NCBI GenBank assembly: GCA_963813025.1
Contig: CAWEXO010000011.1
Span: 128,001-192,000 of the forward strand
Reading direction: 5' to 3'
Length of the DNA: 64,000 nucleotides
Source of the DNA: an uncultured Verrucomicrobiae bacterium
Lineage (GTDB): Bacteria; Verrucomicrobiota; Verrucomicrobiia; Chthoniobacterales; JAFAMB01
Below, one piece after another: positions 4,582-44,410 of this stretch (position 1 is the stretch's first letter; each line of letters begins with the position of its first letter). A program made the position numbers and the translations under genes. Below the pieces are notes generated by a model. It was not told where the DNA came from and did not search any database. It saw only the letters and a list, made by a program, of their open reading frames with translations.

Positions 4582-5951
4582 TCACGAGACCAGTTGAGAA
4601 TGGATCGGGGGTTCTGATACCCCGGGAAAACGGCTCAACCGAAAAAAACGCAGGGTGAAGACCGCAGCGGCGACGAACAAACCCAGCGCCAGCCCACACC
4701 ACACACCAAGAGCGCCGAAACCCATAACAAACCCGCAGAGATAGGCAAAGGGAATCGCGACTCCCCAATAGCATCCGCAAGAAATCCACATTGGGATGCG
4801 GACGTCAGCCATACCACGAAGCGCTCCTGCCGCTGTGACCTGGACCCCGTCCGCTAGCTGAAAGATTCCTGCGACCAGGACAAGCAAGCTGGCAATGGAC
4901 ACGACTTCGCGATCGATCGAGAACAGCTGCGGGATTTGATGATTCCAAAATCCAAAGGCAACAGCAGAACACCCCATCACTGCGACCGCTGCCGCCGTCC
5001 GCCGCAACCGATTATTCGCGTTAACGCCTGTTGACCCGCGCCGAGCGCGTGACCGATGCGAATGGTGACTGCTTGGGAAATCCCGAGCGGAAACATGAAC
5101 GTCGTCGCCGCGCAGGTGATGGCTATCTGATGAGCCGCCAAGGTGCTCGCGCCGATCCAGCCCATCATGACGGCGCTGAAGCTGAAAGCCCCCACCTCGG
5201 CCAGGTATTGCAATCCGACGGGAATCCCCATGGCTAGAAGAGATCGCAATAGCCGGCTATCGAGCAATCCGGGGGACAAGTCTCTGACACGGATGCCGGT
5301 AATCCGGAGCGCATAGAAAAGGGTGCCGAGCATCGCGAATGACCTCGACCAAAAAGTCGCATACGCCGATCCGGCAAGTCCCAGCCTTGGCGCGCCCAGC
5401 AAACCAAAAACCAGAACGACGTTCAAAACAAAATTCAGCACAACCGAGAGGTAGAGAATCACCATCGGCACGGTGGGTCGCCCCAGCGATTCACAGAACG
5501 ATGGTGCAGCGATATAGCCAAGGCCAGGAACCAAGGACCACGCCACAATAATCAGAAAGGGGCTGCTCGCCGCTAAAACCAGTCGCGGCTGGCCAAGCAC
5601 GGGAAGAACGGGAAAAGAAAAACAGACCAGCAGAGCCAAGGCGCTTCCCAAACCAAGAGAAAGCCAGAGCGAAGTTCCCAAAAGCTTCCGTCTCTCTTCG
5701 ATTAGTCCAGCCCCGTGCGCTTGAGCGCCAATGATCGCGGTTGACGCGAGTATTCCAAGCCCAAAAACGAAAAGCATGGTGACAATGGAATTGGCGAAAG
5801 CAATGGCAGCGAGCGCGGTTACCCCGAGGTGCCCAACAACCAGTGTGTCAGTGAGGGCCATTAACATTTGGCCAGCCTGTCCGAACATCATCGGCAGGGC
5901 TAGCTGAACAGTTTTGCGCAGTTCAGACAGGAAAAGACGGATCCGCGACAC
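4582..5951 (-). CDS. MATE family efflux transporter (frameshift near 5005)
   Basis: LALPMMFGQAGQ..DTLVVGHLG, LAAHQIA, FQLADGVQV..GALRG..D; split between two overlapping ORFs. Confidence 0.9.
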
Positions 5952-7070: not shown

Positions 7071-8939
7071 ATGAGCGACATCGTCGGAATCGACCTGGGA
7101 GCCACTAACTCGCTGATTGGAGTGATGGATTCCGGGTTTCCGATCCTTTTGGCAGATGAAAACGGCTCGCGTCTAACGCCCTCGGTGGTACACTTGGATG
7201 AAAGGGATCAATGGATAGTCGGCGCGACCGCCGATCGGATGCGGGTGCTGCAGCCTGGGCGCACGATCTACTCGATCAAACGCCTGATGGGACGGCGTCC
7301 AGGTGAGTCCGAGAAAGACGATTTTACCAGCATATCGCGTTCGTTCAGCCGAGGGTCAGTCTATCATCGAGATCGGAGAGCGTGGTTTCGGCCCGAGCAG
7401 TTGTCGGGCCTCATTCTTACCAAGTTGAAATACGATGCCGAACGTGTGCTCGGGCACGAAGTTGACCGCGCAGTGATCACCGTTCCCGCCTATTTCAATG
7501 AACTCCAGCGCCAAGCAACAAAACGGGCCGGTGAACTCGCCGGTTTGACGGTTGAAAGGATCATCAATGAACCGACCGCAGCCGCACTTGCCTATGGTCT
7601 TGAGCGTCTCACTGACCGCTCTCATGTTGCCGTTTACGATTTAGGCGGCGGAACATTCGACATTTCTATCCTCGAACTCAACGAAGGTGCTTTTCGGGTT
7701 CGCTCAACTAACGGCAACACTCGTCTCGGGGGAGATGATATCGATCGCGAATTGATCCGCTTGTTGAAAGAGCGAGTAATAGCCCGGTATCCGGAACTCC
7801 GTCGTGATCTTGAAGAGCCGCAATCGCTGGCTCGATTACGTGAAATCGCTCGCAACGCGAAAATACGACTTTCGAGCGAAGAGGTTGTCCCGGTTGAAAT
7901 TCCGTTCCTGGCACCTTCGCAAAGCTTTTCTTATATGCTGACCCGACAGGAACTCGAAGCGCTCGTTCGACCGCTGATTCGCAAGACAAGATCGCATTGT
8001 TTGCGGTCGCTGGAAGATGCAAACTTGCGCCTCAGCAGATCGACGAAGTCATCCTGGTCGGTGGCGTCACTCGGATGCCCTTGGTTCGACAGGTCGTGGC
8101 CGAGATTTTTCAGCGTTTGCCCAACGTCAGTCAGAACCCCGACGAAGCGGTCGCCATAGGAGCGACCATTCAAGCCGGGATTCTCTCGGGCGATATCCAG
8201 AACATCGTCCTGCTCGATGTAACTCCGCTCTCCCTCGGGATCGAGACATTCGGCGGTCTGATGAACGTAATCATTCCGCGCAACTCGACGATCCCTTGCA
8301 AAAGCGGCGAAATGTTTACCAATGCTGTCGCCAACCAAACGGTCATGGGGGTAAAAGTCTGCAGGGAGAGCGTGAACTAGCCAAGGATAATTGGGAACTG
8401 GGCAGCGTCACCCTGAATTTCGAACCAGTGCCAAAAGGAGTAGCTCGAGTAGGCGTTCAATTCGAAATCGATGCGAACGGAATGTTGAAAGTTCTGGCAC
8501 GCGACACCCGCACCGGCAAAGAAGAGATCTTAGAGTTGAAAGCGCGGTGGACGTCTCGGACGAAGCCGTTGAAATGATGATTGCGGAATCTCTCGATCAC
8601 GCGTTTGACGACATGAGCGAGAGGGTCTGGACAGAGACGTTACTGAAGAGCAACGAACTGGTTCCGGCAGTGCACAGCGCCTTGACGATGATAGGCGATC
8701 AGATCTCGAAAACAGAACGCGGTCACATCCAGGAACTCTTAGAGAGAGTTGAGGTTGCCCAAAGAGGTCACAACGTCGGTGAGTTGAAAAAAGCAAACGC
8801 CGCCCTGGACGAAGGAACTCAGCATCTGGCGACACTCCTGATCGAAAGAGCCATGGCGGAAGCTGCACGACGAAGGAGAAATTTTGAAAGAAAACGACTG
8901 TTGGATTCGTCGCCAATCTCTTCGCCGCGCGGAAATTGA
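7071..8939 (+). CDS. hscA: Hsp70-family chaperone, HscA-like (frameshifts near 8030, 8360, 8540; end uncertain)
   Basis: [86 protein letters not shown]; follows iscA-hscB. Confidence 0.85.
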
Positions 8940-9754: not shown

Positions 9755-10701
9755 TAGCTCAATACCAGACAGCCGCGTTTGAGTCATAGGTAAAGATGCC
9801 CTTTTCGGGAATCGTTCGCCAAAGCCCACGCCAGGCAGGCCTGATTAAATTGGCGATCGATCTCCTGCCGGAGCAAGCGCACGCCCTGCGCCCGGTTGTA
9901 AGCGGCTCGCAGTAAGAAAGCCATGACGGGGCCCCGGTCGATCGCAAGGACCGCTCAAAATAAGTGTCCAGCACCGAAAGCTTCGCCGCGATCAACACTT
10001 CCAGAATCTGTTTCTGTGTTTCCAAGTCGAGTGGTCGGAACACAATCCGCTCGGTGATCCGAGCAAAGAGTTCCGGGCGGAGGAACTGACTGGCGATATC
10101 GAGCGCCACGCTCTCCATCGTGGTGTACGGCGCGCTTTCCATTTTAGCGAAATCGCCGCTTCCCAGATTACTGGTCAGGACAACATAGAACTGGCGAACG
10201 CCAACCTTTTTCCGTCCAGGTTAGTCAGTTGTCCTTCTTCAAGGAGTGAAAGAAAGATGTCGATCACCCGGGGATTGGCCTTCTCGATTTCATCAAACAG
10301 AATCGTAGTTCCCGAGGGATTTCGCCTGATGGCAGCCTCAGTCCTTTCAACAAATTCAGAAAACCGGGACTCGGCGGAATATTCGTTCATGAAAAGAATT
10401 TCCAGCGGCACGCCCGACCCGAACAGATATTCGGTGAATTGTTTCGCTGATTCGGTTTTTCCTACACCCGTCGGTCCGAGGAAAAGAAAACTGCTTTTGG
10501 GCCGATCAGATAATCCGTTTAACCCTAGCTCGGACGCTTGCAAAGCCCGGGCGATTCGCGCGATCGCGTCCGTCTGTCCGAGAATCAGGCCGTCCAGATG
10601 ATGCTGCAGCCGGCCGAGATAGCGCTTCCAAAAAGAGCGGGATGGGTTTCGCCGCTATCGTCAAATTGGCTCTCACAACGAGAAAGAGAACACTTGTTCA
10701 T
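9755..10701 (-). CDS. Stand-alone ClpA/ClpB-type D2 (AAA_2) ATPase, last gene of the T4SS operon (frameshifted)
   Basis: ILGQTDAI, RPKSSFLFLGPTGVGKTE (Walker A), ILFDEIEKA (Walker B), LLEEGQLT, VVLTSNLGS, FLRPELFARI, VFRPL, QGVRLLRQEI. No Clp_N or D1 domain. Confidence 0.85.
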
Positions 10702-11356
10702 TGCGGACCGCGCACGGTGACACAAGCGTCAGGGGACTCTCCGGAACCGGCAGCCGCCGAAGCGTCCGCTTGTTGCCGTTGTCGCCTTCCAGCCGTTTCA
10801 CTCGCTCATTGAGCAGAGAAACAACAGTGGTTAGCTTTTGTTCGGTCTCAGCCGTCTGCTTGGCCAGCCCAGCCACTTGACCAGCGAGTTTGTCCTGACT
10901 CCGTCTTTCTGCTTCGATCTCTCTGGCCGATTCTTCGGCCGCTCGGCGGGCCTGAACGATTTGTTGGACTGTTTCGCCAGGCAACGGTGGGGTGCGTACT
11001 CCGGTCTTTTCAGCCCGACAATCGGACCCAGCAGAACTTCCGGACGGCAGCTTGCGGCGAGCGAGTTACCCAGGAGGGCTGTTGTTCGAGCCGATAAATG
11101 GCATGTCGTTCATGCATCATGCTCGAATCGGCCGGATCGACATAACGATTGACCCCATAGACCTTCACTACTCCATTTTGACGAATGCTCCCGTCCGGGC
11201 TTGCCCCGGAATGCTCCCCGTTGCTGGATACTGGGAGGCCGTCCGCGCTACGATTTCCTTACCCAGGCTGCGGAGCCAACGAGGTGGTCTTCGGGGTTGC
11301 GGTGCGGCAGGCGACCAGGATACAGCCGAGCACCAAGACTACCAATAACGATGCAT
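10673..11356 (-). CDS. TraV/VirB7-like T4SS lipoprotein with C-terminal coiled coil (frameshifted; one in-frame TAA near 11260)
   Basis: Manual translation: lipobox ILVAC; VKVYGVNRYVDPADSSMMHERHAIYRLEQQPSW resembles the TraV core pattern; helical tail in ORF 10673..10984. Confidence 0.55.
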
Positions 11357-11358
11357 TT

Positions 11359-12506
11359 TCAATTTGCGTTATGAGTTGTTGCTTCCAATGCCGGAAGCAG
11401 AGGTTTGACCAAGTCTGTCGGATCTACGGGGAGGGCCCGACGGACTTCTTCCCGCAGTTTCTTCCTTTGAAAATCCGCTTCATCTCGAGCGATGCGCTCA
11501 TCGTCTGCGGCCACTTTGGCGCGATCCAGGTCGATCGCTTCCATACAATACAAATAGAACTGCTTGCCCGCCGGAACTCGAAGAAAAAACCATCCCGTTC
11601 GATCGAAGAAGCAATTTGGGAAGCATAACGATCCAGCACCGCCTGAGTGCCTCCCCAGGCGGGATTGACCACACCATTCTGCAAGGCGCTCAACCCAAGG
11701 GAATTGCTATTCGTGTAAACGCGGTTGCCGAGCAGCCCGGACGCACTACTGGAGAAAGCTCCGGCAATACCATTAATCAAAGACGCCGCATACAGCTTGA
11801 TGACATCACTATTTGACGTCCGAATCACATCACCACGTAGTCCGGCGCTACCGTCGGTGATGCCGTAACTATCAATCTGCTCGTCGTGCTCCATGTCGAG
11901 CACCATGGCTCGAACGACAAGTTCACGTCCCAGCCCGCTGGGCTCGTTCAACACAAACGTAAATTCACCGTTGCCCGCGATCCGCTCCCGGACAGTATCG
12001 ACACTCGCCAACCCATGAACCTCCGAGTTAGCCCGAATAATCACCTTGCCGTTCCACCACACGTCTTCGTTTACGAAGCCGATGATCGGCGTAGTAAGAT
12101 TACTGGAGTCCACGGTATTAACCAATTGACATTTGACCATCCGAAACGCCGGGGCATAGTCGGCTTTTGGACCTCGCTCCGGCGCCGGTGCCGGCTGAGG
12201 ATCGGCCGCCAGAATAGTAGAGAAGAAGCGGCTGGATCCGACGTGGATGGGTATTCAGAGGCTGACCGGGTAGCAGCGACGACACTCCGGGATTTTTAAC
12301 CGGTTTAGGCCGTTCGGGCAGAACAGGGTTAAAGTTCCTAATGAGGAGGTCATCGAGTCCGTAATATTACCGGCGTCTCGCAGGATCTCGTCTTGACGCC
12401 GATTAAGACGGCGAACTCCGCCGCGCTGCAAAAGCGCGTAGACAAATACACCGCCCAAACAGGGCGCAGCCGTGCCGCCAACGAACAGCGTGCGACGATT
12501 AATCAT
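11359..12506 (-). CDS. virB10: VirB10/TrbI-like T4SS core protein (frameshifted)
   Basis: N-terminal TM, Pro/Ser linker, then YAPAFRMVKCQLVNTVDSS..PIIGFVNEDVWWNGKVII..G and DGSAGLRG (TrbI beta-barrel pattern). Confidence 0.75.
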
Positions 12507-13556
12507 GTTGAGCCACCTTTTGCTCCTTACCGGACCCGTGGTGAGGAGCGTTTGCGATGACGGGAGAGGGCTCGGTATCGGTCTTGGTGGCCGATTCTCC
12601 GCCGGTTCGTTCGTGGGCGATTGATCGGACGAACCGCAGGCTCTTCGGCATGCTGTCCGGGGGCTCCTGCCATTCTGCGGACACCTTCCGCTGCGGATCG
12701 ATCTCAGCGATCACCTGACGAAGCACGACCTCGAATTTATTCGCCACCGCCAAATCGTTCCGGTTCCCGTCGGCTGAGCCGGTGACAACAAAATAGACAA
12801 TCTGAGATTTTCCGGCCGGCACCAGACCGCCAGCATCGGAGACCGCCTGCGCGTAAACCTCATCCCCAACCCGTGCTCCAAAGCTTTCGGGATCGTAAAG
12901 GAAATCATGATCGGTCGGGTTAATGAGTTCGACTTCAAAGCCAACTGAGTCAAGCGCATCATCCCGCATCACTCGCCTCAGCACGATACCAACTCCGTTG
13001 GCCTCCGTGCGGTTTTCCGGCTCGGCGATCTCGAGATTAGCAAACATTTCGGGAGCGCTGTTCTTTAGAGCCGGAAAACCTTTGACCTTGTCCAGAAACC
13101 CTATCACCCTGGCCGGGGAGGCGACTTTAGTTTTCGCCAGCGTTTCGGCAGGCTTGGTCGAATGCCGGCTCGGGCCTTCATCGAAGATAACAACAAATGA
13201 CGCGTCCGCCGCTTCTTTGCAGAAAAGTGAGTAGACTTTACTGTCGAGTACAACACGTAAGATTACCTTCCGCGCCGGGGTGACACCGCTTTCAGTGAGA
13301 GGAAGTTCGTTCCTTTATTGAAAGAGATCTGGAATAGGTCCGGACCATCGGGCGAAGGGTTCAAAGAAAATCCGTATCCATCAAGAGCTTCGACCTTCAT
13401 AGGGAATTCCATCGTGGTGATTCCCTGGATTCCTACTTGAATTATCGAAGGCTCATTCTGGTTCAGCGAAAGGTGGACGATCTTCGAACTCAGATCAGGC
13501 TGACCGAACGACAAAGCTGGTAAGGTGGCGATCAGGAGCGAAACGATTTTACGCAT
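12499..13556 (-). CDS. VirB9/TraK-like T4SS outer-membrane core protein (frameshift near 13270)
   Basis: Signal peptide, IQVGIQGITTMEFP, NFLSLKA, NLNVVLDSKVY; beta-rich C-terminal domain; position between VirB8-like and VirB10-like genes. Confidence 0.6.
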
Positions 13557-13557
13557 A

Positions 13558-14352
13558 TCATTTCTTCTCAGTGGTCTGGAGTTGTAATTGTTCAGGCGGT
13601 CCGAAGTTATAATCCGTCACCGCAAAGGGGTATCGCCGATTTCTGCCGAGATAAGGATTTCGGACTAACTTCAAATTCAAGGAGACAGGCTGCGGCTGAG
13701 TGATCTGCTCACCGTCTATCTCCGCCTGGATCAACAACTGGCCGACGATGTGGGCGAGGATGGTCCCATTGTCAATCCGCTGCAGATCTAGCCGACCAAT
13801 CTCCAGTTTCTGGTGGATGCTCTTCTTGCGAAATTCGGAAGCTGCCGTTTCGAAGTCTTTCTTTGCCTTCTCGAAGGCTTGCGGAAGAAAAACTCTTTCC
13901 AGGGTTTCGGGCGCATCAAAACCTTGAGGCCCTCGGTCAAGAAACGATTTCGCCGCCCAGTAAGAAATCGACTCGAGGACCTCCCGGCTCTGCTCCGCCG
14001 GCACCAGCGGCGCGATAATCAACGATTCGGTACCGTCCAGAAGGGCTACTTTTTCCGGTTGACGCATAACGCTGACCAGATAAGTCGGAATAATGAGGTG
14101 CGCGACCAGGGAAATCAGCAGGGCCGCCCAAAGAAGGCGGACCTTCTGGCGACCCGAGGCTAGTTGACTGGCAGCGCGATGTCGCTCAACGGCCGCGGCA
14201 GAGTCTGAGATCCGTTTGACCTCCGATTCGATTAATTGCTGGCTGCGCAGCCACGACTCCGGGCCAGTGGGCGCACCATCGGAGGCAGTGATCGGCACCT
14301 CCGGCAAAGCCGGGGATTTGCGATTAACAGCGGCGTTTGGCGACGTACTCAT
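13558..14352 (-). CDS. VirB8/TrbF-like bitopic T4SS protein
   Basis: One TM (LLWAALLISLVAHLIIP), then an NTF2-like periplasmic part ending LVRNPYLGRNRRYPFAVTDY (NP motif). Confidence 0.65.
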   Translation of the reverse strand: MSTSPNAAVNRKSPALPEVPITASDGAPTGPESWLRSQQLIESEVKRISDSAAAVERHRAASQLASGRQKVRLLWAALLISLVAHLIIPTYLVSVMRQPEKVALLDGTESLIIAPLVPAEQSREVLESISYWAAKSFLDRGPQGFDAPETLERVFLPQAFEKAKKDFETAASEFRKKSIHQKLEIGRLDLQRIDNGTILAHIVGQLLIQAEIDGEQITQPQPVSLNLKLVRNPYLGRNRRYPFAVTDYNFGPPEQLQLQTTEKK

Positions 14353-14360
14353 AGCCGGCG

Positions 14361-15490
14361 CTAGTGCCTAATTGCGTAAGTTAGTTATATGTATGGCGAC
14401 TTTCCCCTGATGTACCTGGGATTTGGTCCATTCGAAGGGAGCCGCATTGTTATTGTAGTTCTTGATGAAGGTGTCGATGGCGTTGCGCAGCTCTGCCACG
14501 CTGGTGAAGTTTGCCCCCTGGAGGGCTTGGCGGCTCAAGATACTAAACCAGATCTCAATCTGGTTGAGCCAAGAAGCGTGGGTTGGAGTGAAATGAAAAT
14601 GCACATTGGGGTGAGCCTTCAACCAGCGATCTTGCTTTGGCTTATGGGTCGCAAGGTTGTCTAAGACCACATGAATTTCTTTGTCGAGATTTCCGGCAAC
14701 TACCTGGTTCATAAACTCCAGGAATTCCCGTCGGCGCTGGCGCCGGTAATGACCAGCCTGCACTTGGCCGCTGGCAATGTTGAGGGCGGCAAAGAGAGTG
14801 GAGGTGCCATGGCGCTTGTACTCGTGGCTAAAACCCGTCAGCGCCCTGCCATTGGGCAAGCGAATCCAACCTTGGGCTCTTTCCAGGGCTTGAATGGCTG
14901 GTTTTTCATCAATGGCCAAGATGAGCGCATTCTGGGGCGGATTGAGATAAAGACCGACAATGTCAGCGGCCTTGCGCACAAACTCCGGATCGGTGGAAAT
15001 GCACCAGCTGCGGCGCCGTTCCAATTCAATGCCTTGTTGGCGCAAAATGCGCCAGACTTGATCGGAGGAAACATCGGCCAGACTCTGCGCCAGCAGTCGC
15101 CCATTCCAGCGCCCGTAGCCCGCCGGTGGATCTTCATCCAGCAGCGCCAAGACCCGCTTGACCGTCATTTGATCATACTTGGCCGGCTTTCCACTGCGTG
15201 GCGCGTCTTCCAAGCCAGCCAGGCCTTGGCGCACAAAGCGCCGCCGCCATTTACTCACCGTCACCTCGGGAATGCGCAGGCTCTTGGCAATCGCACGTCC
15301 ACTCAAGCCCGCTGCCGCCTTCAAGATAATCTGACTCCTGACCTTGAGCCGGTGTTCGACCCGTTGCGCTCGACTCCAACCCTCCAAGAGCTTGCGGTTT
15401 TCCACAGAAAGTTTGATGCAACCCATTGCCATCCATCCAACAAATCATAATTTTTCATAAATATAAAGAACTAAAGCAACTAAGTACTAG
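14361..15490 (-). mobile_element. IS630-family insertion sequence, copy 1
   Basis: CTAG at both ends (TA duplication); imperfect terminal inverted repeats CTAGTGCCTAATTGCGTAAGTT / CTAGTACTTAGTTGCTTTAGTT; near-identical copy at 43241. Confidence 0.95.
14368..15432 (-). CDS. IS630-family transposase
   Basis: HTH (KWRRRF..GLAGLEDAPRSG), DEK, HEYKRHGT, LDNL..H, HFTPTHASWLNQIEIWF. Confidence 0.96.
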   Translation of the reverse strand: MAMGCIKLSVENRKLLEGWSRAQRVEHRLKVRSQIILKAAAGLSGRAIAKSLRIPEVTVSKWRRRFVRQGLAGLEDAPRSGKPAKYDQMTVKRVLALLDEDPPAGYGRWNGRLLAQSLADVSSDQVWRILRQQGIELERRRSWCISTDPEFVRKAADIVGLYLNPPQNALILAIDEKPAIQALERAQGWIRLPNGRALTGFSHEYKRHGTSTLFAALNIASGQVQAGHYRRQRRREFLEFMNQVVAGNLDKEIHVVLDNLATHKPKQDRWLKAHPNVHFHFTPTHASWLNQIEIWFSILSRQALQGANFTSVAELRNAIDTFIKNYNNNAAPFEWTKSQVHQGKVAIHITNLRN

Positions 15491-17031
15491 TCCCACATGT
15501 ACTGTTGGGCTCGATTCGAAGAATTTGTGACGCGTCCGTTCCGCTTAGTTAGCGCGCCGAAGGAACTCAGACCGTGGGCTGCGCCGACGGAATCTCCGGC
15601 GGCGTGCGCAGTGAGTGAGCCCAATGAACCCATCAAGTTTCCCCCGACCGATGTCAAGGAGTCGGCCGTGTCGAGGGGGGCCGCCAAGGCATCGGCCGCA
15701 CCAGTAATTATCCCGCCCACCAGGTTCTTCGCCTTGGAAGAAGACGATGTTCGCCCACCCCTCGAACCGCCCCGATTCCCGGGGAACTCTGTCCTAGCCA
15801 GACCTGAAGCGAACGCTCGACCATCGGCCAACGCCGGCAATCCTCGATCCTGGCCGACAGAGTTCGCTGCGCCGGCTTGAGAGTTCTTTGCCCCAAAGAG
15901 TCCACGACCGAAACCATTGACCATGTTCGACAATCCGCCCCCGACCTGACGAATCCCCGCGGCGACAGTTGAGGCGATCCCGCTATAGGCCGCGCCGGTC
16001 AGTGGACCGGTGGCCGCGAGCATGGACCCGGCGAAGCCCTGTAGTGCTGCTCCGCCGTGCGTAACGATCTTTTGCGCATAAAAGGGTGCCAGAAAATGAC
16101 CGATCAAGGTCCAGAAGAAAATCGGAATAATGGCGATAAGACCCAGCAAGATCGAGCCCAAATTGAGCGGATCGATCTGGGACATTCCGTCGAGTAGCCC
16201 GACCGTGATGATGTTGACAAAGACCCAGCCCACCGGCCAGCAATACGCCCCGACCAGGGTTTTCAGATACAGCACGCCTTGCGAGCGCAGCGAGTGAACG
16301 GTCAGCTCGGCTAATCCGATGGGCAGGTAGATTGAAAGAAAAATGAGAATAACTTGCTGGAGCAGCTGCATCAACCGCACTACAAAATCGCACGAGCGAA
16401 AAAGCAGGAGCACCAGCCATAGCAGCAGATTGCGGACGAAGCCCATCGCCCATTCAAACGACCCTGAATGCATCAGTTGCCAGGCAAACCAAGCGTTGAA
16501 TTGCAAGATTGAAGGTGACTTATCATTTGATTGACTGCTGTTCGGGCCGGTTGGGGTTTCGTTCGAGTTCGTCGTGTTTTGCGGGTTCGGATATTTCCTG
16601 TTCAGAACATCATCGATCATCGCCAGATCTGGTTGCAGGGTGTATTGAAACATCACTGGCTTGCCGGTACTCGTTAGCTGCATCTGCGTCGCTACCGTCG
16701 ATTTGGTAATTCCGTTCGCGGCCTGATCCAGCCAGTTTCTCCAGGTCTTCCCGCCAAAGATGAGGCTGGTGATAAGCATTAGACGAAGGACTGTTCCAAA
16801 AAAGTGGCGTTGATCCGCTCGTAGAAAATTCTGGACAGCGCTTACCACCAGCAGAACGAACGCGATGACAAGACTGATTTCCGCCAGGTTGTCGGCAAAG
16901 TTTTGTGCCGTGTCTATTACCTTCTGGACATCCAGAAAACCCGTGAAAGCGGACCCGGACCCGGTACCAGGCAAAGGACTGGGCGCCGTGGTTGCGGCAA
17001 ACAAAAAGAAACCCTGGATTCCGGCAAACAT
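15487..17031 (-). CDS. VirB6/TrbL-like polytopic T4SS membrane protein
   Basis: Several TMs, LPIGLAELT, WPVGW, Gly/Ala-rich tail typical of TrbL; follows the VirB5-like gene. True start may be ATG 17092 via a frameshift. Confidence 0.65.
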   Translation of the reverse strand: MFAGIQGFFLFAATTAPSPLPGTGSGSAFTGFLDVQKVIDTAQNFADNLAEISLVIAFVLLVVSAVQNFLRADQRHFFGTVLRLMLITSLIFGGKTWRNWLDQAANGITKSTVATQMQLTSTGKPVMFQYTLQPDLAMIDDVLNRKYPNPQNTTNSNETPTGPNSSQSNDKSPSILQFNAWFAWQLMHSGSFEWAMGFVRNLLLWLVLLLFRSCDFVVRLMQLLQQVILIFLSIYLPIGLAELTVHSLRSQGVLYLKTLVGAYCWPVGWVFVNIITVGLLDGMSQIDPLNLGSILLGLIAIIPIFFWTLIGHFLAPFYAQKIVTHGGAALQGFAGSMLAATGPLTGAAYSGIASTVAAGIRQVGGGLSNMVNGFGRGLFGAKNSQAGAANSVGQDRGLPALADGRAFASGLARTEFPGNRGGSRGGRTSSSSKAKNLVGGIITGAADALAAPLDTADSLTSVGGNLMGSLGSLTAHAAGDSVGAAHGLSSFGALTKRNGRVTNSSNRAQQYMWD

Positions 17032-17127
17032 CTTTCTTCAGTACAATCGATAGATTTTTTCCTAATGGGCTTCCGGTCTGCCTGCTCGTCATTGGCAGAG
17101 CTCCCGCGTCACTTCTGGAAGACTCTT

Positions 17128-17979
17128 TCAGCGCCCCGACAGCTCAGGGGCACTCTGGAAAAATTGATGTCCGCCGTTTAATAGCGTTGCCGTGTCGCTG
17201 GCAAAACCCTGAGCAGCTTGCTGCTTCGCTGCCAATGCTTGTCGCGCCTCGTCGTTCTGGTTCGCGGCCTGCTGGACCAGGACTTTCATAGCCGTGGCAT
17301 GAAGGCGGGACGACCAGTTGTCAAGACTGCCTTGCACCGCTTCAAGCTTTGCCTGCCATTTTTCTGTTTCCACCAGGGAGCCGGCCGCGTTCAACTGCTG
17401 CAAGCTCTGGTGTTTTTCCTGCTGCAACCGGGCAAGGGACTCATTGGCTGATAGCATCTCAGTATTATAAGATTCGTACAAGTCCTGCACCGCGCCGAAT
17501 CGTTTGAAACTGTTCGCATCGAATTGAACCTTCTGACCGAATCGATCCGGCAGGTTTGATAAATCGTCGTACAACCCTCCTGCCGTATTTTTTAACGCCA
17601 TGACTCCGTTGGCCGTTATTCGTATTTCGCCTATTGTCTGTCCGACTCCGCTCTTGATCTTGTTTACATCGGCCAGCAATGCATCGAGTCCGAGCATGTT
17701 TGTATAGTAGTCCGGGCTGCCGAAACGCTTGAGCGCTTCCGTACTCTGATTAATGACCTGCGTCAGTTGTTGGATTTGTTGAGCCTGTTTATTGATCATC
17801 TCACTGTATTTGGCTACGTCCTGTGCGTGATACCCGGCTTCCTTTACCTGGCCAATCGTTTGTTGAAGGATGTTGAGGACGGTGTGGATCGGGTCATGAA
17901 CGGTCGTGGCTTTCCCTTGATCCAACCCGGCTAAAGCCATTAGGAAGATCGCCGCTGAAAGGCCGCCCTTATTCGACAA
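17128..17979 (-). CDS. VirB5/TrbJ-like secreted helical protein
   Basis: Signal peptide, then TVHDP and Gln-rich coiled coils (QAQQIQQLTQ); probable TTG start overlapping the upstream stop. Confidence 0.65.
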   Translation of the reverse strand: MSNKGGLSAAIFLMALAGLDQGKATTVHDPIHTVLNILQQTIGQVKEAGYHAQDVAKYSEMINKQAQQIQQLTQVINQSTEALKRFGSPDYYTNMLGLDALLADVNKIKSGVGQTIGEIRITANGVMALKNTAGGLYDDLSNLPDRFGQKVQFDANSFKRFGAVQDLYESYNTEMLSANESLARLQQEKHQSLQQLNAAGSLVETEKWQAKLEAVQGSLDNWSSRLHATAMKVLVQQAANQNDEARQALAAKQQAAQGFASDTATLLNGGHQFFQSAPELSGR

Positions 17980-18331
17980 TTGGAATCGTGATTTCACGAG
18001 AAACCCGGATAACCCCAGTACCGTCTTCATGTTCCGGCACGGTCGCGTTGTAATAACGAATATGGCCTTCATCAGTTTGCTGACTTGTTCTTTGGTTTTG
18101 TTGCTGCGCCCAATAGCTGCGTTTGATCTGGTCCGAAACACCTTTGGTGTAGCCTTTCGCAAATTCGATTGGCACCTTTCGCGCGTTCTCACCATCAGCC
18201 AGCAGCGGATCACCTTGGTCGGTCAGCGCTTCCGCTCCTCTTCCTTGCATCGTCTGCTGGCCTTTAGGCACAGTTGGGCCGACGGTGCACCCAGTGGCCA
18301 GCACGGCAATGAACACAAACCACTTCTTCAT
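17969..18331 (-). CDS. Small T4SS-associated lipoprotein
   Basis: MKKWFVFIAVLATGC lipobox; start overlaps the virB4 stop. Confidence 0.75.
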   Translation of the reverse strand: MKKWFVFIAVLATGCTVGPTVPKGQQTMQGRGAEALTDQGDPLLADGENARKVPIEFAKGYTKGVSDQIKRSYWAQQQNQRTSQQTDEGHIRYYNATVPEHEDGTGVIRVSREITIPIVE

Positions 18332-21177
18332 AAGATTGGCTCGGTCGCGCATTCTTCGCTGGCAGCGTCGATCTTCTCCGATTCGGCAATAATCCCGGCA
18401 ACAATATTCCGGTACTGGCTCAGGGTAAGGGTGCGCAGATCAAAGATCTCATTATCACTCGAAGCCGCGTAGAGAAGCTCCCGGGAAGCCACATTCTTAA
18501 CCGTACCGACGAGCCGTCGGTTCTTATCGTTGGCCACGTAGGTAAACGCGCTAAAGCGCTCCCTCGGATCCATCAGCTCGGGCAAGGGATAGTTATGAAT
18601 CGTCTCAACCGCTTTCTCCGACAGACTGAGTGCTTCACCAATATCGCGGGCATCTTCTCTGCTTTGTTGAGACGTAATCAGAAACATCTTTGAGTTTCCG
18701 ATCATCGCGCTGCGAACGGGTGATTGTTTGAGAATGTCGTACTGCTGAACGACAGCCAGGATGTTACAGCCGAACTTGCGCATCTGTCGATAGTACTCCT
18801 GGATCATCTTCACTCCTCCGGGGATATCGAGTGTCCGGGCCGCTTCTTCAAAGATCGCTAGTTTTGGGACGGCACGCGGCATTGAGATAATCTTTTGGCG
18901 CCCGTAATTAGCGACCAGAAAGTTAGCGGCCGCGCGCAATTCGATGGCGTGTTCGGGAATCTGACCTAATTCGAAGTGAGCAACCCGGCCATCAATACGG
19001 ATATTGCTCACTCCGTCAAAAAGCTTTCCGCGCTCACCGTGACGGCTCCATGCTCGCAGCAATTTCCCTACCCGATCGGTTTCCTGACGGTCCCTCTCTC
19101 CGCCGCTTGAACTATAGAGTAGCTGTTCGACCAACGCGTTATGCGTGGGAAACTGCTCGGGTCGGAAATAGGCAAAGGCTAAATCGCGCACAAGCGATGC
19201 CGTCGCCGGATTTTTGGCGAACTCCGCTACTTCATTTTCGTCTTGTGATTGAAGGAAGACATGAGCCTCGTCCGCGCACGCTTTCTCCCAGTCCCGGAAA
19301 GCGGCAAACGCATCGACAAAGTTAAATTGCGAACTTCTCATTTTTGTCCGCAAATACCTGTCGATAGCCGAGGCGCGCCACCGGAGTTCCTCGCCGGCTG
19401 CTTCATGGGCCACTAACCAATCGTGAAAAACATCGGTATAAAGTTGCTGCAGATGTTCCACGATCATCGTTTGGCGGAGCGCTTTCCGTTCATTATCCAA
19501 ACCGTGGTCACCGCAAAAGAGCAGGCAAAGTCCGGCGCTAAAAGCGAGATGCATGGGGGATAGCGGCGACTCGCAGGTGTCAAGGTAATTAATTGTTAAG
19601 TTTCCATTCGGGTTAATCACGACAGGGTTGCACCCCTGCGTCTGAGTAAGAACGCCATGAGAAAGGCCCTCTTCAACAACTAAACGAAAACCGAATCGGT
19701 GCCCGATCTGGGCCAGCAGGTCACCGATAATAACCGACTTACCAGCGCCCGTCATACCAAAGACCACGCCGTGCTGCGGAGTGTTTCCCAAGCGGGTCTT
19801 GATCCCCACCAGGTTACCCCGGGCGCCATTGTAAATGGCTTCCGCTCCGTCCAAATGGCCGGTAAAGGTCGCCGACCAGGGTATCAGATCGGCAAGATAG
19901 GCGTCTTCCGCTGGCAGATCGAACTCCCGATAGGTGCCGCAGGTCCAGCCGGGCCAGGTCTGGTAGAATAGTTGGCGGGCGTTTTCCGGAATGATTGCGT
20001 GATGAACCACGGCACCGCCCATCGCGATAAACGCGTTCCGCATCGCGACACAACGAGCCGCCAGCGCGTCGGGATTCTGATGCCACAATCGAACAACGTA
20101 AAGGCAATCAAGGGGAATAACTTTGCCTTGCTGGATTTCGTGTACCTTCTCCTGTTTCGCGATCAGATCGGCGACTAACGACTGCTTTCGCTCGGAAGCG
20201 GCATCGATCTGGAGTCGTTGAATATGGCCCTCCTCGCGTTCGATGACTCGATCGATCGCTTTCGGGTAAACGTTGAGGGTAATTCCGTACTCTTGAAAGC
20301 CCATGCCGGTCAACGCCGTGACGATCCCGGGGAACGTTCGCCGAGGCCATTGGCGAACCGCGAAAATCGCGTGGTGATAGGAGCCGAGTGTAAAAGAGAC
20401 ACCAGGAAGATGTGACGGGCTGATGCCATCGGTATGGAGGCAGTTCTGCTGGATGGAAACGCCGGGATCGAAAAGCTCTATCGGATTGATCTCGGTCACG
20501 CCGAAGTTGGTGTTCAGGAACCGGTAATAAAAGAGAAAATGATCTCGATCAGAAAGCGGCGCTGTCCGGCAATCCGCGAACAAGCGGTTCAAAGTTCCGA
20601 GACCAAAATCGAGCAGCGCCCGACTTTCTTTGCGGGCCAGCGTATCGAAATACTCGGTCAAAACTCGCGGAGTCGTCAGCGGGGCGTGCGTCTCAATGGT
20701 ACGAGTAACAAAAACCGTCAGCCGTTCCCGGCGGAGGCGCCCTTCTTCCATCGCCGCTTTATAACGTTCGTAACGTTCCGCTCTGACCAGCACACCAAAC
20801 TGCCCGTAAACCGGGTCTTTCCGCCGAATCGAGAGTGTCTCCCGGTGATATTGATCGAGTTCGTGTCGATAGTCGCTGTCGATACTCCACTGGAATTGCA
20901 AACTGTGTTCTTCACCCATCGTGCCAACGAGAATACGGAGCCGCTCGTGAAGATCGTTGAGCTGGGTCACGCTGAAAGTGTTCACCTCGCCCGGCTCGAC
21001 GCTGAATCCGCGGGAAATCGCGGTTCGCCGGGAAGCGCCGTCGCCGAACCAGAGCAGGTCATGCAGGAAGAAACCATTCGGCATGCCGTGCCGCAACACG
21101 CGCGAGCTCGGTGCGCCCCGCCTCCCGGTCATCCGGCAGGCAATCGTACTCCCCAGATTGACAAGGGGTTGGATCAT
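18328..21177 (-). CDS. virB4: VirB4-family T4SS ATPase
   Basis: 949 aa; HGVVFGMTGAGKS (Walker A), INYLD, GKLFDG, LAIFEEA (Walker B), RQMRKFG, VVQQ. Confidence 0.9.
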   Translation of the reverse strand: MIQPLVNLGSTIACRMTGRRGAPSSRVLRHGMPNGFFLHDLLWFGDGASRRTAISRGFSVEPGEVNTFSVTQLNDLHERLRILVGTMGEEHSLQFQWSIDSDYRHELDQYHRETLSIRRKDPVYGQFGVLVRAERYERYKAAMEEGRLRRERLTVFVTRTIETHAPLTTPRVLTEYFDTLARKESRALLDFGLGTLNRLFADCRTAPLSDRDHFLFYYRFLNTNFGVTEINPIELFDPGVSIQQNCLHTDGISPSHLPGVSFTLGSYHHAIFAVRQWPRRTFPGIVTALTGMGFQEYGITLNVYPKAIDRVIEREEGHIQRLQIDAASERKQSLVADLIAKQEKVHEIQQGKVIPLDCLYVVRLWHQNPDALAARCVAMRNAFIAMGGAVVHHAIIPENARQLFYQTWPGWTCGTYREFDLPAEDAYLADLIPWSATFTGHLDGAEAIYNGARGNLVGIKTRLGNTPQHGVVFGMTGAGKSVIIGDLLAQIGHRFGFRLVVEEGLSHGVLTQTQGCNPVVINPNGNLTINYLDTCESPLSPMHLAFSAGLCLLFCGDHGLDNERKALRQTMIVEHLQQLYTDVFHDWLVAHEAAGEELRWRASAIDRYLRTKMRSSQFNFVDAFAAFRDWEKACADEAHVFLQSQDENEVAEFAKNPATASLVRDLAFAYFRPEQFPTHNALVEQLLYSSSGGERDRQETDRVGKLLRAWSRHGERGKLFDGVSNIRIDGRVAHFELGQIPEHAIELRAAANFLVANYGRQKIISMPRAVPKLAIFEEAARTLDIPGGVKMIQEYYRQMRKFGCNILAVVQQYDILKQSPVRSAMIGNSKMFLITSQQSREDARDIGEALSLSEKAVETIHNYPLPELMDPRERFSAFTYVANDKNRRLVGTVKNVASRELLYAASSDNEIFDLRTLTLSQYRNIVAGIIAESEKIDAASEECATEPIL

Positions 21178-21512
21178 TCCGGGAAGAGGAAAGGATGGTG
21201 CGGTTGGGCTTTTGCCGGACGAAACGCCGGGCCATTCACCCAGGAAGCGAGCAGATCACGATCGAAACGCGGAGGGCGCCGGTTGCGGAACAAGATGATG
21301 TAGCCCGCGGTCAAAACGGTCGGAGCCAGGGACACCATGAATTTGACGGCGAGAGGGAGCATATTGCGCCCGCTGAAAAGCATCGTAAGGACAAAGACCG
21401 AGACCATGCCCGCGACGATCACCGGCATGCCGAGATTCCCCTCAAACCCAAAGGCATGTCCTGTCGATTTCGCCCGTGGCCGGGTGTCGGTGTAGATCAG
21501 ATTATCTTTCAT
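21174..21512 (-). CDS. VirB3-like two-TM protein
   Basis: Two TMs, RNRRPPRFDRDL; stop overlaps the virB4 start. Confidence 0.65.
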   Translation of the reverse strand: MKDNLIYTDTRPRAKSTGHAFGFEGNLGMPVIVAGMVSVFVLTMLFSGRNMLPLAVKFMVSLAPTVLTAGYIILFRNRRPPRFDRDLLASWVNGPAFRPAKAQPHHPFLFPE

Positions 21513-21537
21513 CGAGTCGCGGTATACCGAGCGTGAC

Positions 21538-21903
21538 CTAAAATCCGCTAACCGCGTTCGCGGTGGGGCTGCCGCCACTGAAGAGCGCGAACAACGCCTT
21601 CATCAAAACTACGGCGCCGGCCACGCCGATTCCGTAGACGACTGTCATCTTCCAGTTTTCGTCCCGTTTCGCGTTCAGAAATCCTCCCATTACCATCACG
21701 CAGCCGGCGATGAAGCCAAAAATGGTGATTAGATTCAGACCGCTCTGGAGCGGATTAGTAAAGTTGCTCAGGTTGGCAGCCTGACCGGTTTGAGCAAAAA
21801 TCGGTGTTGCCTGGAGAAGAAGGCTTGCCAGCAAGCCCGCGAAAAGCTTCAGCACTCCGGGCCGGCTCGCTCGCGGGAGCGCTGTGGACGATGCTCTGTT
21901 CAT
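21538..21903 (-). CDS. VirB2/TrbC-like pilin
   Basis: Long signal peptide (…IFAQ) plus two Gly-rich hydrophobic helices separated by AKRDENWK; first gene of the operon. Confidence 0.65.
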   Translation of the reverse strand: MNRASSTALPRASRPGVLKLFAGLLASLLLQATPIFAQTGQAANLSNFTNPLQSGLNLITIFGFIAGCVMVMGGFLNAKRDENWKMTVVYGIGVAGAVVLMKALFALFSGGSPTANAVSGF

Positions 21904-21975: not shown

Positions 21976-22084
21976 TCCGCGCTGAGCGCGACTCGGCGCC
22001 TCGATAGAACCGATGGATCAGAGGACCTGTAGCGAACAAGTTTCCAACTTGTCGGGGGCTTTAATCCCGGTATTTTCGCTGCCG

Positions 22085-22927
22085 GTGCCAGAGAATGATC
22101 CAATAGCTTTTGCCTTGGCCGAAGACATCGGATCGGGGGACCTGACCTCGACCTTCTTCGTGCCAAAACACCGGCGATCGCGGGCCCGCATTTTCGCCAA
22201 GGAACCAGCCGTTGTTGCCGGCACCGGAGTGGCTGAGCAGGTATATCAAACGGTCGACTCAAGCCTCGACGTAGTCATCACTATTCCAGATGGCACGCCT
22301 GTCTCGGCGGGTGACACCGTGTTGCAAATCAGTGGAACTACTCGTTCGATTTTGACTGGTGAACGCGTGGCGTTGAATTTCATCCAGCGACTCTCCGGGA
22401 TCGCTACGCTGACGCGAGAGTTTGTTCGCCGAACCGCCGGAACAAGTGCGAAGATCCTCGACACGCGTAAGACCACCCCCGGGCTACGCCGCCTGGAGAA
22501 GGCAGCGGTGAAAGCAGGCGGTGGACAGAACCATCGGATGGGTTTGTTCGATGGCGTTATCGTCAAGGATAATCATCTCCTCACTCGACCAGAACTGGCG
22601 GAGGCCATCCACGCTCTCAAGCAGACTCATCCCGACGTCATGATCGAGGTGGAGGCTGATTCGTTGGATCAGGTAAAAACGTTTGTCCAATTGCCCGGGG
22701 TCGACCGCATCCTCCTGGATAATATGTCGCCGACTGCGTTGAGAGCGTGTGTCGCGCTGCGCCGACCGAACCTGACTTTCGAAGCGAGTGGCGGGATTAG
22801 CCTGGACACGGTTGAGGAAATCGCGAAAACGGGGGTGGATTACATTTCGGTCGGGCAACTGACCCATTCGGCTCGCGCGATTGATTTTTCCTTGGAGCTG
22901 CTCGATGAAGAAATCGGGCGAAAGTGA
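22085..22927 (+). CDS. nadC: Nicotinate-nucleotide diphosphorylase (carboxylating)
   Basis: ALAEDIG..DLTS, ERVALNF, DTRKTTPGLR, NHRMGL, KDNH, EVE, LLDNM, EASGG. Confidence 0.96.
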   Translation: MPENDPIAFALAEDIGSGDLTSTFFVPKHRRSRARIFAKEPAVVAGTGVAEQVYQTVDSSLDVVITIPDGTPVSAGDTVLQISGTTRSILTGERVALNFIQRLSGIATLTREFVRRTAGTSAKILDTRKTTPGLRRLEKAAVKAGGGQNHRMGLFDGVIVKDNHLLTRPELAEAIHALKQTHPDVMIEVEADSLDQVKTFVQLPGVDRILLDNMSPTALRACVALRRPNLTFEASGGISLDTVEEIAKTGVDYISVGQLTHSARAIDFSLELLDEEIGRK

Positions 22928-37519: not shown

Positions 37520-37549
37520 AGGAATTTCGGCGCCAAATCTGGGCACCCC

Positions 37550-38899: not shown

Positions 38900-38972
38900 G
38901 GTGGCCGTAGCTCAATGGTAGAGCCCTGGATTGTGGTTCCAGCTGTTGCGGGTTCGAGTCCCGTCGGCCACC
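38900..38972 (+). tRNA. tRNA-His (GUG)
   Basis: G-1 plus GTGGCCG/CGGCCAC acceptor stem, AGCTCAATGGTAGAGC D arm, CTGGA-TTGTGGT-TCCAG anticodon arm, GGTTCGAGTCC T arm; full CCA not encoded. Confidence 0.97.
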
Positions 38973-39056
38973 CCGTGCTGGTGCTTCGTCACCGGGACAA
39001 CCATTCGCTGATAGCGATCGAGACTCGCCATCTAGCTAAAGCCTGTTGCGAAATGG

Positions 39057-44370: not shown

Positions 44371-44410
44371 CGCCGCGGAGCCGCAACCAGAGCGGCCGTG
44401 CAGAGTCCAG

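Follow-up and report, generated by a model that had tools for sequence, protein, structure and literature searches.

By sequence comparison, the operon described here belongs to a type IV secretion system (T4SS) lineage specific to Verrucomicrobiota, in which a small ClpB-like AAA+ ATPase is a constant component. Three ATPase families, VirB4, VirD4 and VirB11, underlie what is known of T4SSs, and a lineage with a constant small ATPase of the ClpB type is previously undescribed. The initial annotation knew of no characterised system of such composition, and no paper describing one was found in a literature search. On balance we consider it probable that the locus is a T4SS channel operon of Verrucomicrobiota, fixed in the chromosome together with a coupling protein (T4CP) and without a conserved relaxase, and that the AAA protein would be a core subunit seated on VirB4.

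When the 11 proteins of an intact relative from an Illumina MAG (L029) were compared by tblastn with the stretch of 64,000 nucleotides analysed here (the window), all 11 T4SS genes were recovered on the minus strand. The initial annotation had given the same genes, strand and order, but it missed an IS630 element, and the four distal genes are not open as assembled. The features are as follows, in the order of the operon and ending with its neighbour.

21538..21903, minus strand, VirB2-like pilin gene, 121 aa, 58% identity to the L029 orthologue
21174..21512, minus strand, VirB3-like small membrane protein, 65% identity to L029
18328..21177, minus strand, VirB4/TraC-family ATPase, 949 aa, intact
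17969..18352, minus strand, small lipoprotein, lipobox ...ATGC, 62% identity to L029
17128..18030, minus strand, VirB5/TrbJ-like protein, start codon uncertain
15487..17031, minus strand, VirB6-like polytopic membrane protein, 514 aa, intact
14361..15491, minus strand, IS630-family insertion sequence, 1131 bp, transposase at 14368-15432 (DDE_3 75.8 bits plus N-terminal HTH)
13558..14352, minus strand, VirB8-like gene, intact, 83% identity to L001 over 266 aa
12502..13556, minus strand, VirB9-like gene, two 1-nt insertions near 13230-13265
11359..12506, minus strand, VirB10/TrbI-like gene, three 1-nt indels
10673..11365, minus strand, second lipoprotein gene, two 1-nt deletions
9759..10701, minus strand, AAA_2 ATPase gene (ClpB-NBD2-like single-ring AAA+), about 310 aa when whole, three 1-nt deletions
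22013..22927, plus strand, nadC, quinolinate phosphoribosyltransferase (QRPTase_C/N)

In close relatives, synteny extends over the whole set of 11 genes. The divergent nadC lies 109 bp from the pilin start, within the 200 bp proposed earlier, and is the neighbour of the operon in 16 close-clade loci. No T4SS component exceeded a curated NCBIfam cut-off, and several of the names used here are Pfam matches below curated cut-offs. The window VirB4, 89% identical to that of L001, matched PF19044 (P-loop_TraG) with 35.1 bits, above the cut-off of 25.8; for the L029 VirB4 the top NCBIfam model was TraC-F-type (73.5 bits, cut-off 567), with VirB4_CagE at 63.9 bits (cut-off 643), and some relatives carry PF11130 (TraC_F_IV). 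The pilin-like protein has a signal peptide and two hydrophobic segments, as read from its sequence, and no significant family in a Pfam scan. The VirB3-like protein, whose stop codon overlaps the VirB4 start, had no Pfam match and is labelled by position and size only. Sub-threshold matches of ICE-clade orthologues were found for the VirB5/TrbJ-like protein (PF07996 T4SS, 23.5 bits against 24.7; DUF4141; TrbJ_Ti, 25 bits against 100), the VirB6-like protein (TrbL, 21.2 bits against 25.9), which in the window aligns to residues 1-511 of 511 of L001, and the VirB9-like protein (CagX, 27.3 bits against 34.2). For the VirB10-like gene, TrbI scored 30.7 bits in the window piece (cut-off 35) and 70.1 bits in the L046 orthologue. 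The name VirB8-like comes solely from the nearest named Atlas clusters of the L029 protein (VirB8/DotI-IcmL/TraE, 0.94-0.95) and is a lead only. Neither lipoprotein had a family match in Pfam or NCBIfam. The second one carries a conserved HERH..YR..E....W motif and a long C-terminal helix; it had been called TraV-like, a name that we do not retain, as its Atlas matches are Verrucomicrobial hypothetical clusters only and its structural model is poor (pLDDT 64).

A domain search of the operon and of a set of related loci found no VirB11. One T2SSE-type ATPase gene on the same contig (C11:125530-126588) was considered as VirB11 and rejected, being PilT-like (pilT_fam 269.6 bits versus VirB11 47.9) and adjoining a prepilin gene. 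The earlier wording that the Clp-type ATPase stands "instead of VirB11" overstates the oddity, since according to PMC4027160 VirB11 is rare outside MPF_T (19%).

There were 402 tblastn-confirmed relatives in a collection with one genome per species. The locus would be the mating-pair-formation operon (channel and pilus) of a lineage with two sister forms. The first is borne on ICEs: both genomes examined carry a T4CP with ParA, a divergent TrwC (MOBF) relaxase-helicase of 941-949 aa (272-273 bits), an integrase and defence cargo, with the relaxase/T4CP module 8-37 kb from the channel operon, and unrelated MAGs share near-identical copies of VirB4. Some of the ICE-clade copies scanned have large Rhs or nuclease toxins as neighbours. 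The second form is chromosomal and would be fixed in one Chthoniobacterales-like family. Its VirB4 was present in 15/15 sampled genomes of the window's family and in 30/135 genomes from other families of the same order; it is single-copy, its flanks are housekeeping genes common to relatives, and purifying selection acts on each of the 11 genes (dN/dS 0.03-0.19; AAA 0.08-0.13). Since the operons of the sister clade sit in ICEs, a situation the initial annotation had linked to a decayed ICE, the window locus is ICE-derived, but its own clade is chromosomal and conserved rather than simply decayed. These data support the earlier idea of a domesticated, lineage-specific T4SS in so far as the window's clade is chromosomal and lineage-wide. 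The Clp-like ATPase cannot be counted as a sign of domestication, since the AAA gene is shared by the ICE-borne clade with its TrwC, T4CP and integrase.

Among the window ORFs scanned there was no relaxase, T4CP, VirB11 or tyrosine/serine integrase domain, in agreement with the earlier reading. The description of the operon as an orphan with an ATPase in place of VirD4, however, is contradicted by an intact T4CP gene at C11:117993-119819 (608 aa; TrwB_AAD_bind 40.4 bits, cut-off 20.5), 18 kb from the AAA gene and 8 kb outside the window. An orthologue is present in 37/41 family genomes, including 10/10 of the high-quality ones. In sister genomes the T4CP gene directly adjoins the AAA gene, convergently in several family genomes, and the trio of Rep3-like gene, F4 and T4CP adjoins the same housekeeping block in 10/10 genomes. 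The T4CP of one sister genome carries a TAA. The chromosomal form would be maintained without a conserved relaxase but alongside its T4CP, a winged-helix gene of Rep3-like type and a small partner gene.

The relaxase itself has been lost or has decayed in this family. The window's own genome yielded only two TrwC fragments, on other contigs, and its one PF03432 relaxase lies within a separate VirD4 element on contig C5. TrwC occurs in only 20/41 family genomes, mostly as fragments or in multiple copies, so that the distribution of relaxases does not follow that of the operon, which is present throughout. One genome of 95% completeness in two contigs (G010) has the system and none of PF08751, PF03432, PF03389 and PF07514, the four relaxase families covered by the search; a relaxase supplied in trans could still serve the operon. 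These observations bear on whether the chromosomal operon continues to act in conjugation, serving in-trans relaxases of mobilisable islands or resident ICEs, or moving chromosomal DNA. The retention of the T4CP in 37/41 genomes, TrwC genes or fragments in 20/41, the plainly conjugative sister clade and a Rep3-like DNA-binding protein fixed beside the T4CP would fit such a role; we nevertheless judge it unlikely, given G010, the independence of relaxase and operon, and the lack of an iteron-like repeat array near the Rep3-like gene. Conservation without a relaxase, the only basis for assigning a host function, hints that the chromosomal form may now serve its host through export of protein or DNA via the T4CP, and not self-transfer.

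The AAA gene was matched in 57/57 evaluable loci of both clades, with one match (L008) dubious, so the proposed linkage to this VirB4 lineage holds and the gene is a core part of the system, not a mark of domestication. Its position differs between the clades, at the end of the operon in one and divergent and transcribed alone in the ICE clade; in every case it goes with the channel operon and, in the ICEs, not with the distant relaxase/T4CP module. The possibility that it is a passenger, for instance a stress or maintenance gene without a role in secretion, draws on this solitary divergent arrangement and on the fact that the link to secretion consists of sequence and model. We hold it to be highly improbable, since the gene accompanies the operon in all evaluable loci despite its two positions, is under purifying selection, and encodes a family-specific motif, AT[ML]ER..L..A.Q, in an insertion between sensor 1 and the arginine finger that falls within the predicted VirB4 interface.

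The window AAA matched Pfam AAA_2 with 70.6 bits, and a PDB comparison matched the second nucleotide-binding domain (NBD2) of ClpB (E 1.4e-35). A model of the L016 orthologue (pLDDT 93.6) superposed on ClpB NBD2 with TMq 0.80-0.86. Walker A and B, sensor 1, the arginine finger and the GAR sensor 2 are conserved, and the D2-small domain is present. The protein, of 300-330 aa, covers only positions 556-851 of the 853 of the ClpB model, and comparison with PDB and NCBIfam entries revealed no N-domain, M-domain or first ring. The pore-loop tyrosine (GYVG) is not conserved: ICE-clade proteins have a different residue at its position, the loop of the close-clade proteins is shortened by 6 residues, and the model has a helix at this site. 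Against the ClpV/TssH model TIGR03345 the score was 103.7 bits, far below the cut-off of 885, and the neighbours are T4SS genes.

A ClpB fold with its catalytic motifs would also suit a substrate unfoldase or chaperone acting on relaxase or effectors, or a ClpV-like factor that disassembles pilus or channel, in place of a docked structural motor. Substrates of T4SSs have to be unfolded and the T6SS sheath is recycled by ClpV; the Rhs or nuclease toxins beside some ICE-clade copies could be read in the same direction. We think this quite improbable, as the threading tyrosine is not conserved and the pore loop is shortened, no N-domain, M-domain or first ring is available for substrate choice, and the gene always goes with the channel operon and not with the relaxase/T4CP module 8-37 kb away in ICEs.

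A docked subunit is what the complex models favour. VirB4 (residues 450-949) modelled with the AAA protein gave ipSAE values of 0.64, 0.68 and 0.71, against 0.00 for the best control, with 49-50 contacts, a partner pLDDT of 84 and full agreement between runs; VirB4 was the only partner tried. The mark used was reached by 116/157 solved complexes and 2/215 mismatched pairs, a calibration that is only approximate, the score being a model confidence obtained with our own alignments. Across 50 VirB4s linked to an AAA gene, the interface motifs LY.D.F.DW and P.H..L.E show conservation of 90% or more; part of these motifs is kept in the VirB4 of an AAA-less outgroup, the TAV5 plasmid, so co-variation adds weak evidence. 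We infer from the models that the AAA protein may dock on a conserved helical insertion of VirB4. The protein of about 310 aa would then be a core cytoplasmic subunit, an ATP-hydrolysing ring holding roughly the place of VirB11 in MPF_T systems, and it would thread no substrates, because the pore-loop tyrosine is missing.

The IS630 element separates the VirB6-like stop from the VirB8-like start and has the same orientation as the operon. CTAG is found at both junctions, and insertion took place at the TA inside CTAG, as for the IS630 family; the VirB6-like TAG stop falls inside this CTAG, the VirB8-like ATG lies 8 nt past the IS end, and no reading frame is interrupted. The genome holds 26 full-length copies, 25 of them near-identical and one at 85%. 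Ten 1-nt indels affect the four distal genes, from VirB9-like to AAA. Those of the VirB10-like gene lie at about 12350, about 12215 and in a T-run at about 11585; the first two bracket some 45 out-of-frame codons and give rise to an apparent in-frame TGA at 12255-12257. As assembled, therefore, the window copy may be non-functional. Many IS elements, further broken genes, 80% completeness and 16 contigs characterise this genome.

The ten indels are either assembly errors or a very recent inactivation. All are confined to the 4.6 kb on the downstream side of the IS, with the 6.4 kb upstream free of them, a pattern that under an even spread has a chance of (4.6/11.0)^10, about 2e-4 by simple arithmetic. 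Homopolymers of at least 5 bases are not enriched downstream (8, versus 20 upstream), and the 25 near-identical IS copies differ by only 2 indels over 28 kb. From these figures, together with the IS-rich, fragmented state of the genome and the TAA in the T4CP of a sister genome, the window copy could be a freshly dying remnant in which the IS630 element cut distal expression and indels followed, the system being functional across the family and lost here. This is a possibility that we take seriously yet do not favour. The broken distal pieces have dN/dS values of 0.05-0.25 versus L001, as low as the upstream genes, so any decay must be very recent. Damage also affects two neighbouring genes unrelated to the system, MatE and an Hsp70 gene that runs through three frames, and the lesions thus form one contiguous patch, from 4.9 to 13.3 kb, that is not T4SS-specific. 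Two lesion sites are covered by public contigs, and in both cases the contigs have the missing base: 4996 (otherwise 214/214 identical) and 9944 (a 95%-identical strain). The co-oriented IS breaks no frame.

If the account of a docked subunit is true, a ClpB-type ring without pore loop, predicted to sit on VirB4, would be a fourth kind of T4SS motor or regulator and would offer a natural opportunity to study the function of the third ATPase in T4SSs. More tentatively, we can envisage a new T4SS class that uses a single-ring ATPase derived from the second ClpB domain as an obligatory third motor on VirB4 and that is fixed family-wide in abundant soil Verrucomicrobia, with a T4CP and no relaxase, working outside conjugation, for example in delivering effectors or toxins or in releasing DNA. 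The mobile and family-fixed sister clades offer a clean system for studying how conjugation machines are domesticated. Current tools and curated models name none of these genes, so conjugative elements of Verrucomicrobiota are probably under-counted. VirB4 relatives are named in the cultured species Prosthecobacter algae and Phragmitibacter flavus, and genetics may therefore be possible, the AAA gene in these species being a candidate only.

Compared with the VirB/VirD4 systems (MPF_T; Agrobacterium VirB, R388 Trw), the window lineage has the same VirB2- to VirB10-like set in the usual order, a VirB4 motor, a core of TrbI/VirB10 and CagX/VirB9, a TrwB-type coupling protein and, in the ICE sister clade, a TrwC-type relaxase. 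It differs in having neither VirB11 nor VirB1, two extra lipoproteins, nothing above an NCBIfam cut-off, and a constant ClpB-NBD2-like ATPase. F-type systems (MPF_F) share the absence of VirB11 and the TraC-F-type model as the top NCBIfam hit of VirB4, although at 73.5 bits against a cut-off of 567, and the window lineage has VirB5-, VirB6- and VirB8-like genes rather than the F-specific Tra set. The nearest plasmid-borne relative is the Opitutaceae bacterium TAV5 plasmid (CP007054.1; MOBF typing), with a VirB4 of 27% identity over 96% of the query and homologues of the small lipoprotein and the VirB6-like protein, but no AAA homologue within 16 kb on either side of VirB4; all its genes are annotated as hypothetical.

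Helicobacter ComB, the Neisseria GGI and the bacteria-killing T4SS of Xanthomonas are likewise chromosomal T4SSs kept by selection. ComB works without a T4CP, which the window system keeps, while the GGI needs a relaxase, which is not conserved here. With ClpB NBD2 (T. thermophilus 4lj4/4fct) the AAA protein shares fold, catalytic motifs and the D2-small domain; it differs in standing alone, without N-domain, first ring, M-domain or GYVG tyrosine, and in its added family-specific motif. ClpV/TssH is likewise a Clp-family ATPase dedicated to a secretion machine, but it is a double-ring enzyme whose N-domain has no counterpart in the single-ring protein of this T4SS operon. VirB11 belongs to an unrelated fold family, and the analogy that we propose with it is functional only: both would be cytoplasmic ring ATPases encoded in the channel operon, with a predicted contact to VirB4.

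The operon was read by six-frame translation and by a search with the 11 proteins of L029, an intact related locus from an Illumina MAG. Composition and order were recovered in this way, so that the 11-gene minus-strand operon of the initial annotation is largely borne out; its gene order stands, while a 1131-bp IS630-family element and ten 1-nt indels depart from that description.

T4SS operon, 21903 to 9759, minus strand: 11 genes in the order pilin-like, VirB3-like, VirB4, small lipoprotein, VirB5-like, VirB6-like, VirB8-like, VirB9-like, VirB10-like, second lipoprotein, AAA_2 ATPase
VirB4, operon gene 3, minus strand: 949 aa, open frame
VirB6-like, operon gene 6, minus strand: 514 aa, open frame
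VirB8-like, operon gene 7, minus strand: 264 aa, open frame
IS630-family element, 14361-15491, minus strand, same direction as the operon: between the VirB6-like stop and the VirB8-like start
Second IS630 copy of the window, 43241-44371

Among the window's own pieces, VirB4 matched Pfam P-loop_TraG with 35.1 bits, the ATPase matched AAA_2 with 70.6 bits and VirB10 matched TrbI with 30.7 bits, below the cut-off of that family, and none of the operon components reached the NCBIfam curated cut-offs. Modelling of the second lipoprotein gave a result too poor for a fold search (pLDDT 64, pTM 0.26), which leaves its TraV-like name putative. nadC is divergent from the operon across a gap of 109 bp. 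The sole tRNA detected by a scan of the window is tRNA-His (38901-38974), away from the operon, and a repeat scan of the window returned only the two IS630 copies. Directly past this tRNA lies a nest of insertion sequences (39057-44371), made up of an rve transposase of IS3 type and its HTH ORF, fragments of DUF772 and DDE_Tnp_1_6, and the second IS630 copy.

In a pattern scan that took one genome for each species, VirB4 relatives were encoded at 402 places, and the 79 loci that were kept are nearly all titled Verrucomicrobiota; a full-text literature search, with subscription journals outside its scope, found no account of this lineage. The VirB4 tree (FastTree, 70 rows) was rooted on the nearest plasmid homologue, a long branch, which belongs to an all-hypothetical cluster on a plasmid of Opitutaceae TAV5 with 27% identity. 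It consists of two groups: the close clade, with 30 rows, to which the window belongs, and another with 38 rows. Sister to the former, chromosomal clade is the VirB4 of L038 (G001:C1:247645-270449), the second whole-operon copy of the sister genome G001. This copy is 45% identical, has the AAA gene last and a type IV coupling protein (T4CP) gene directly upstream of the pilin gene, and is missing from the window's genome.

The 38-row sister clade is mobile, and is referred to here as the ICE clade. Some genomes have several copies of its operon, near-identical copies occur in unrelated MAGs, and DUF932, RadC, recombinases, a giant methylase-helicase and Rhs-type toxins are encoded in its flanks. 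Two genomes were followed outward from the operon, and each has, within 8-37 kb, a T4CP accompanied by ParA, a divergently encoded TrwC relaxase-helicase (941 aa in one, 949 aa in the other), an integrase and defence cargo. Cargo lies between the T4SS and the relaxase in L083 and L085 (G003:C2, 1.98-2.03 Mb) and includes a Piwi-domain protein adjoining SIR2_2, HamA with a DEAD helicase, DUF1156/DUF499 proteins, AbiEii/AbiEi and an Hsp70-TPR protein. Upstream of the AAA gene, several ICE-clade loci also have large ORFs that resemble Rhs or polymorphic toxins, with domains that include TNT, HNH, Colicin-DNase and TcdB_toxin_midN:

L045, 522-5756
L046, 2-5701, with L082, 1-5448
L062, 86-3427
L042, 86-4372
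L047, 1116-2321
L049, 98-1321
L063, 37-1710

The close clade, for its part, behaves as a host gene set. All 15 genomes sampled from the window's family have its operon, versus 30 of 135 in the other families of the order, nadC neighbours it in 16 loci, and dN/dS was 0.03-0.19 for all 11 genes over seven informative pairs. For the family, the earlier reading of a domesticated system is supported, though unproven at the level of function.

An AAA gene was matched in all 57 loci with sufficiently long flanks (23 of the close clade and 34 of the other), a count that includes one dubious case, L008, with a 34% match beside a truncated VirB4. In the close clade, the gene is last and its start overlaps the stop of the lipoprotein gene; ICE-clade loci have it divergent and just upstream of the pilin gene. 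These positions tie it to the channel module and not to the relaxase/T4CP module, and its presence in both clades makes it older than their split. By sequence and fold, the protein is the second nucleotide-binding domain of ClpB with the D2-small domain (PDB 4lj8, E 1.4e-35; model pLDDT 93.6; Foldseek TMq 0.80-0.86), with conserved Walker A and B, sensor 1, arginine finger and GAR sensor 2. Since the tyrosine of the GYVG pore loop is not conserved and the loop is six residues shorter in the close clade, these residues make a canonical threading unfoldase unlikely. PLSDB held no orthologue: all 2273 matching records were below 60% identity, and the 30 matches listed reached at most 40.5% and were mainly annotated clpB. 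No Clp-type ATPase described as a T4SS component was found in a full-text literature search with subscription journals outside its scope. In this T4SS lineage, the Clp-like ATPase is a real core component that has apparently not been described before.

Two ORF families were observed beside this gene. A MORN_2-repeat protein family directly adjoins it in 19 loci. Another, f12, in ICE loci, was discarded as probably an antisense artefact of the greedy ORF caller; it occurs mainly where the pilin and VirB3 genes were uncalled, yet alongside one or both of them in several loci.

The ORFs of the 79 loci were clustered to find linked families, and a family of 490-620 aa emerged whose members converge on the AAA gene in eight close relatives. 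Its TrwB_AAD_bind and TraG-D_C domains identify it as a T4CP. The orthologue of the window's genome lies 8.2 kb before the first base of the window:

T4CP, C11:117993-119819: intact, 608 aa, 65% identical to the T4CPs of relatives
Rep3-like/F4/T4CP trio, C11:116546-119819 (L080:8546-11819): includes a Rep3/RepM-like winged-helix protein of 244 aa

With an intact T4CP some 18 kb away from the AAA gene, the description of the system as orphan and lacking VirD4 was wrong. Upstream of the T4CP gene, all ten family genomes examined have F4, a small gene, and a divergent Rep3-like winged-helix gene, and in all ten the trio adjoins the same CAAX-protease/comF/accD/folC block. Five of these genomes have the T4CP gene directly facing the end of the operon that carries the AAA gene, which is probably the ancestral layout. 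Neither F4 nor the Rep3-like protein had a detectable homologue in eight ICE-clade loci, and no iteron-like array was present near the Rep3-like gene. The T4CP orthologue was found in 37 of 41 family genomes and TrwC in just 20 of 41, where it is mainly fragmentary or multi-copy; in the window's genome, TrwC is limited to two fragments. G010, a genome that is 95% complete in two contigs and has operon and T4CP, gave zero matches to four relaxase families. A separate conjugative element of an unrelated VirD4/MOBP type is located on contig C5 of the window's genome, at about 260-281 kb, with an intact PF02534 VirD4 (617-aa frame), a second VirD4 in four pieces and a PF03432 relaxase.

The IS630 element of the operon entered a CTAG that holds the TAG stop of the VirB6-like gene and re-created CTAG at both flanks; no reading frame was interrupted, and its transposase is oriented like the operon. 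The genome has 26 full-length copies, 25 near-identical and one at 85% identity, and 23 of the 26 retain a 358-codon open frame. All ten single-base indels are in four distal genes (VirB9-like, VirB10-like, second lipoprotein and AAA). A TGA at 12255-12257 was rejected as a nonsense mutation, since a conserved RNFNPV stretch in another frame places it between two compensating indels. Other genes of the window are also broken:

MatE gene, 4582-5951: split over two frames
DnaK/HscA-like Hsp70 gene, 7071-8939: in three frames, adjoining an IscA-like gene
MFS_3 transporter, 37488-38514: in pieces

We consider it somewhat more probable that the lesions are assembly errors than that the copy is a recent pseudogene, to which we give somewhat less than an even chance. 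The lesions are contiguous, in a single patch (4.9-13.3 kb) in which the unrelated MatE and Hsp70 genes are broken as well, and no relaxed selection is seen when the broken pieces are compared with the sister genome (dN/dS 0.05-0.25). The missing base was present at both lesion sites reached by contigs of a public soil run, a comparison limited to one run with 6% of words, whose short contigs span 17 of 30 bins and a minority of lesion sites. At 4996, the public contig has one extra base and is otherwise identical over 214 bases; at 9944, the base is in the contig of a 95%-identical strain. On the other side, true decay is favoured by the position of all ten indels downstream of the IS, with none in the 6.4 kb upstream, by a homopolymer density downstream that is not above that upstream, and by the abundance of IS elements and other split genes in the genome. 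Just two indels among 25 near-identical IS copies over 28 kb also speak for decay, as a weak control in which identical sequence would share identical systematic errors. Completeness is about 80% in both genomes of the genus despite just 16 and 9 contigs (82-97% in family peers), which fits many broken genes or else error-rich assemblies.

Finally, the complex of AAA with the C-terminal half of VirB4 was predicted from alignments of 50 paired loci, together with three controls. The model scored 0.64, 0.68 and 0.71, versus 0.00 for the best control, with 49-50 contacts, a partner pLDDT of 84 and runs in full agreement. Of 157 solved complexes, 116 reached the docking mark, as did two of 215 mismatched pairs; these counts apply only roughly here, since the model was built on our own alignments. 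The contacts involve VirB4 stretches 578-590 and 677-689 and, on the AAA side, a helix specific to the family that lies between sensor 1 and the arginine finger. The VirB4 interface motifs reach a conservation of 90% or more among the 50 VirB4s linked to an AAA gene, and the AAA-less protein of TAV5 departs from them in part. The model supports, and falls short of showing, that AAA binds VirB4, and for the docking of an AAA ring on VirB4 we judge the chances to be about balanced. Docked on VirB4, such a ring would take the functional position of VirB11, which is rare outside MPF_T (PMC4027160).
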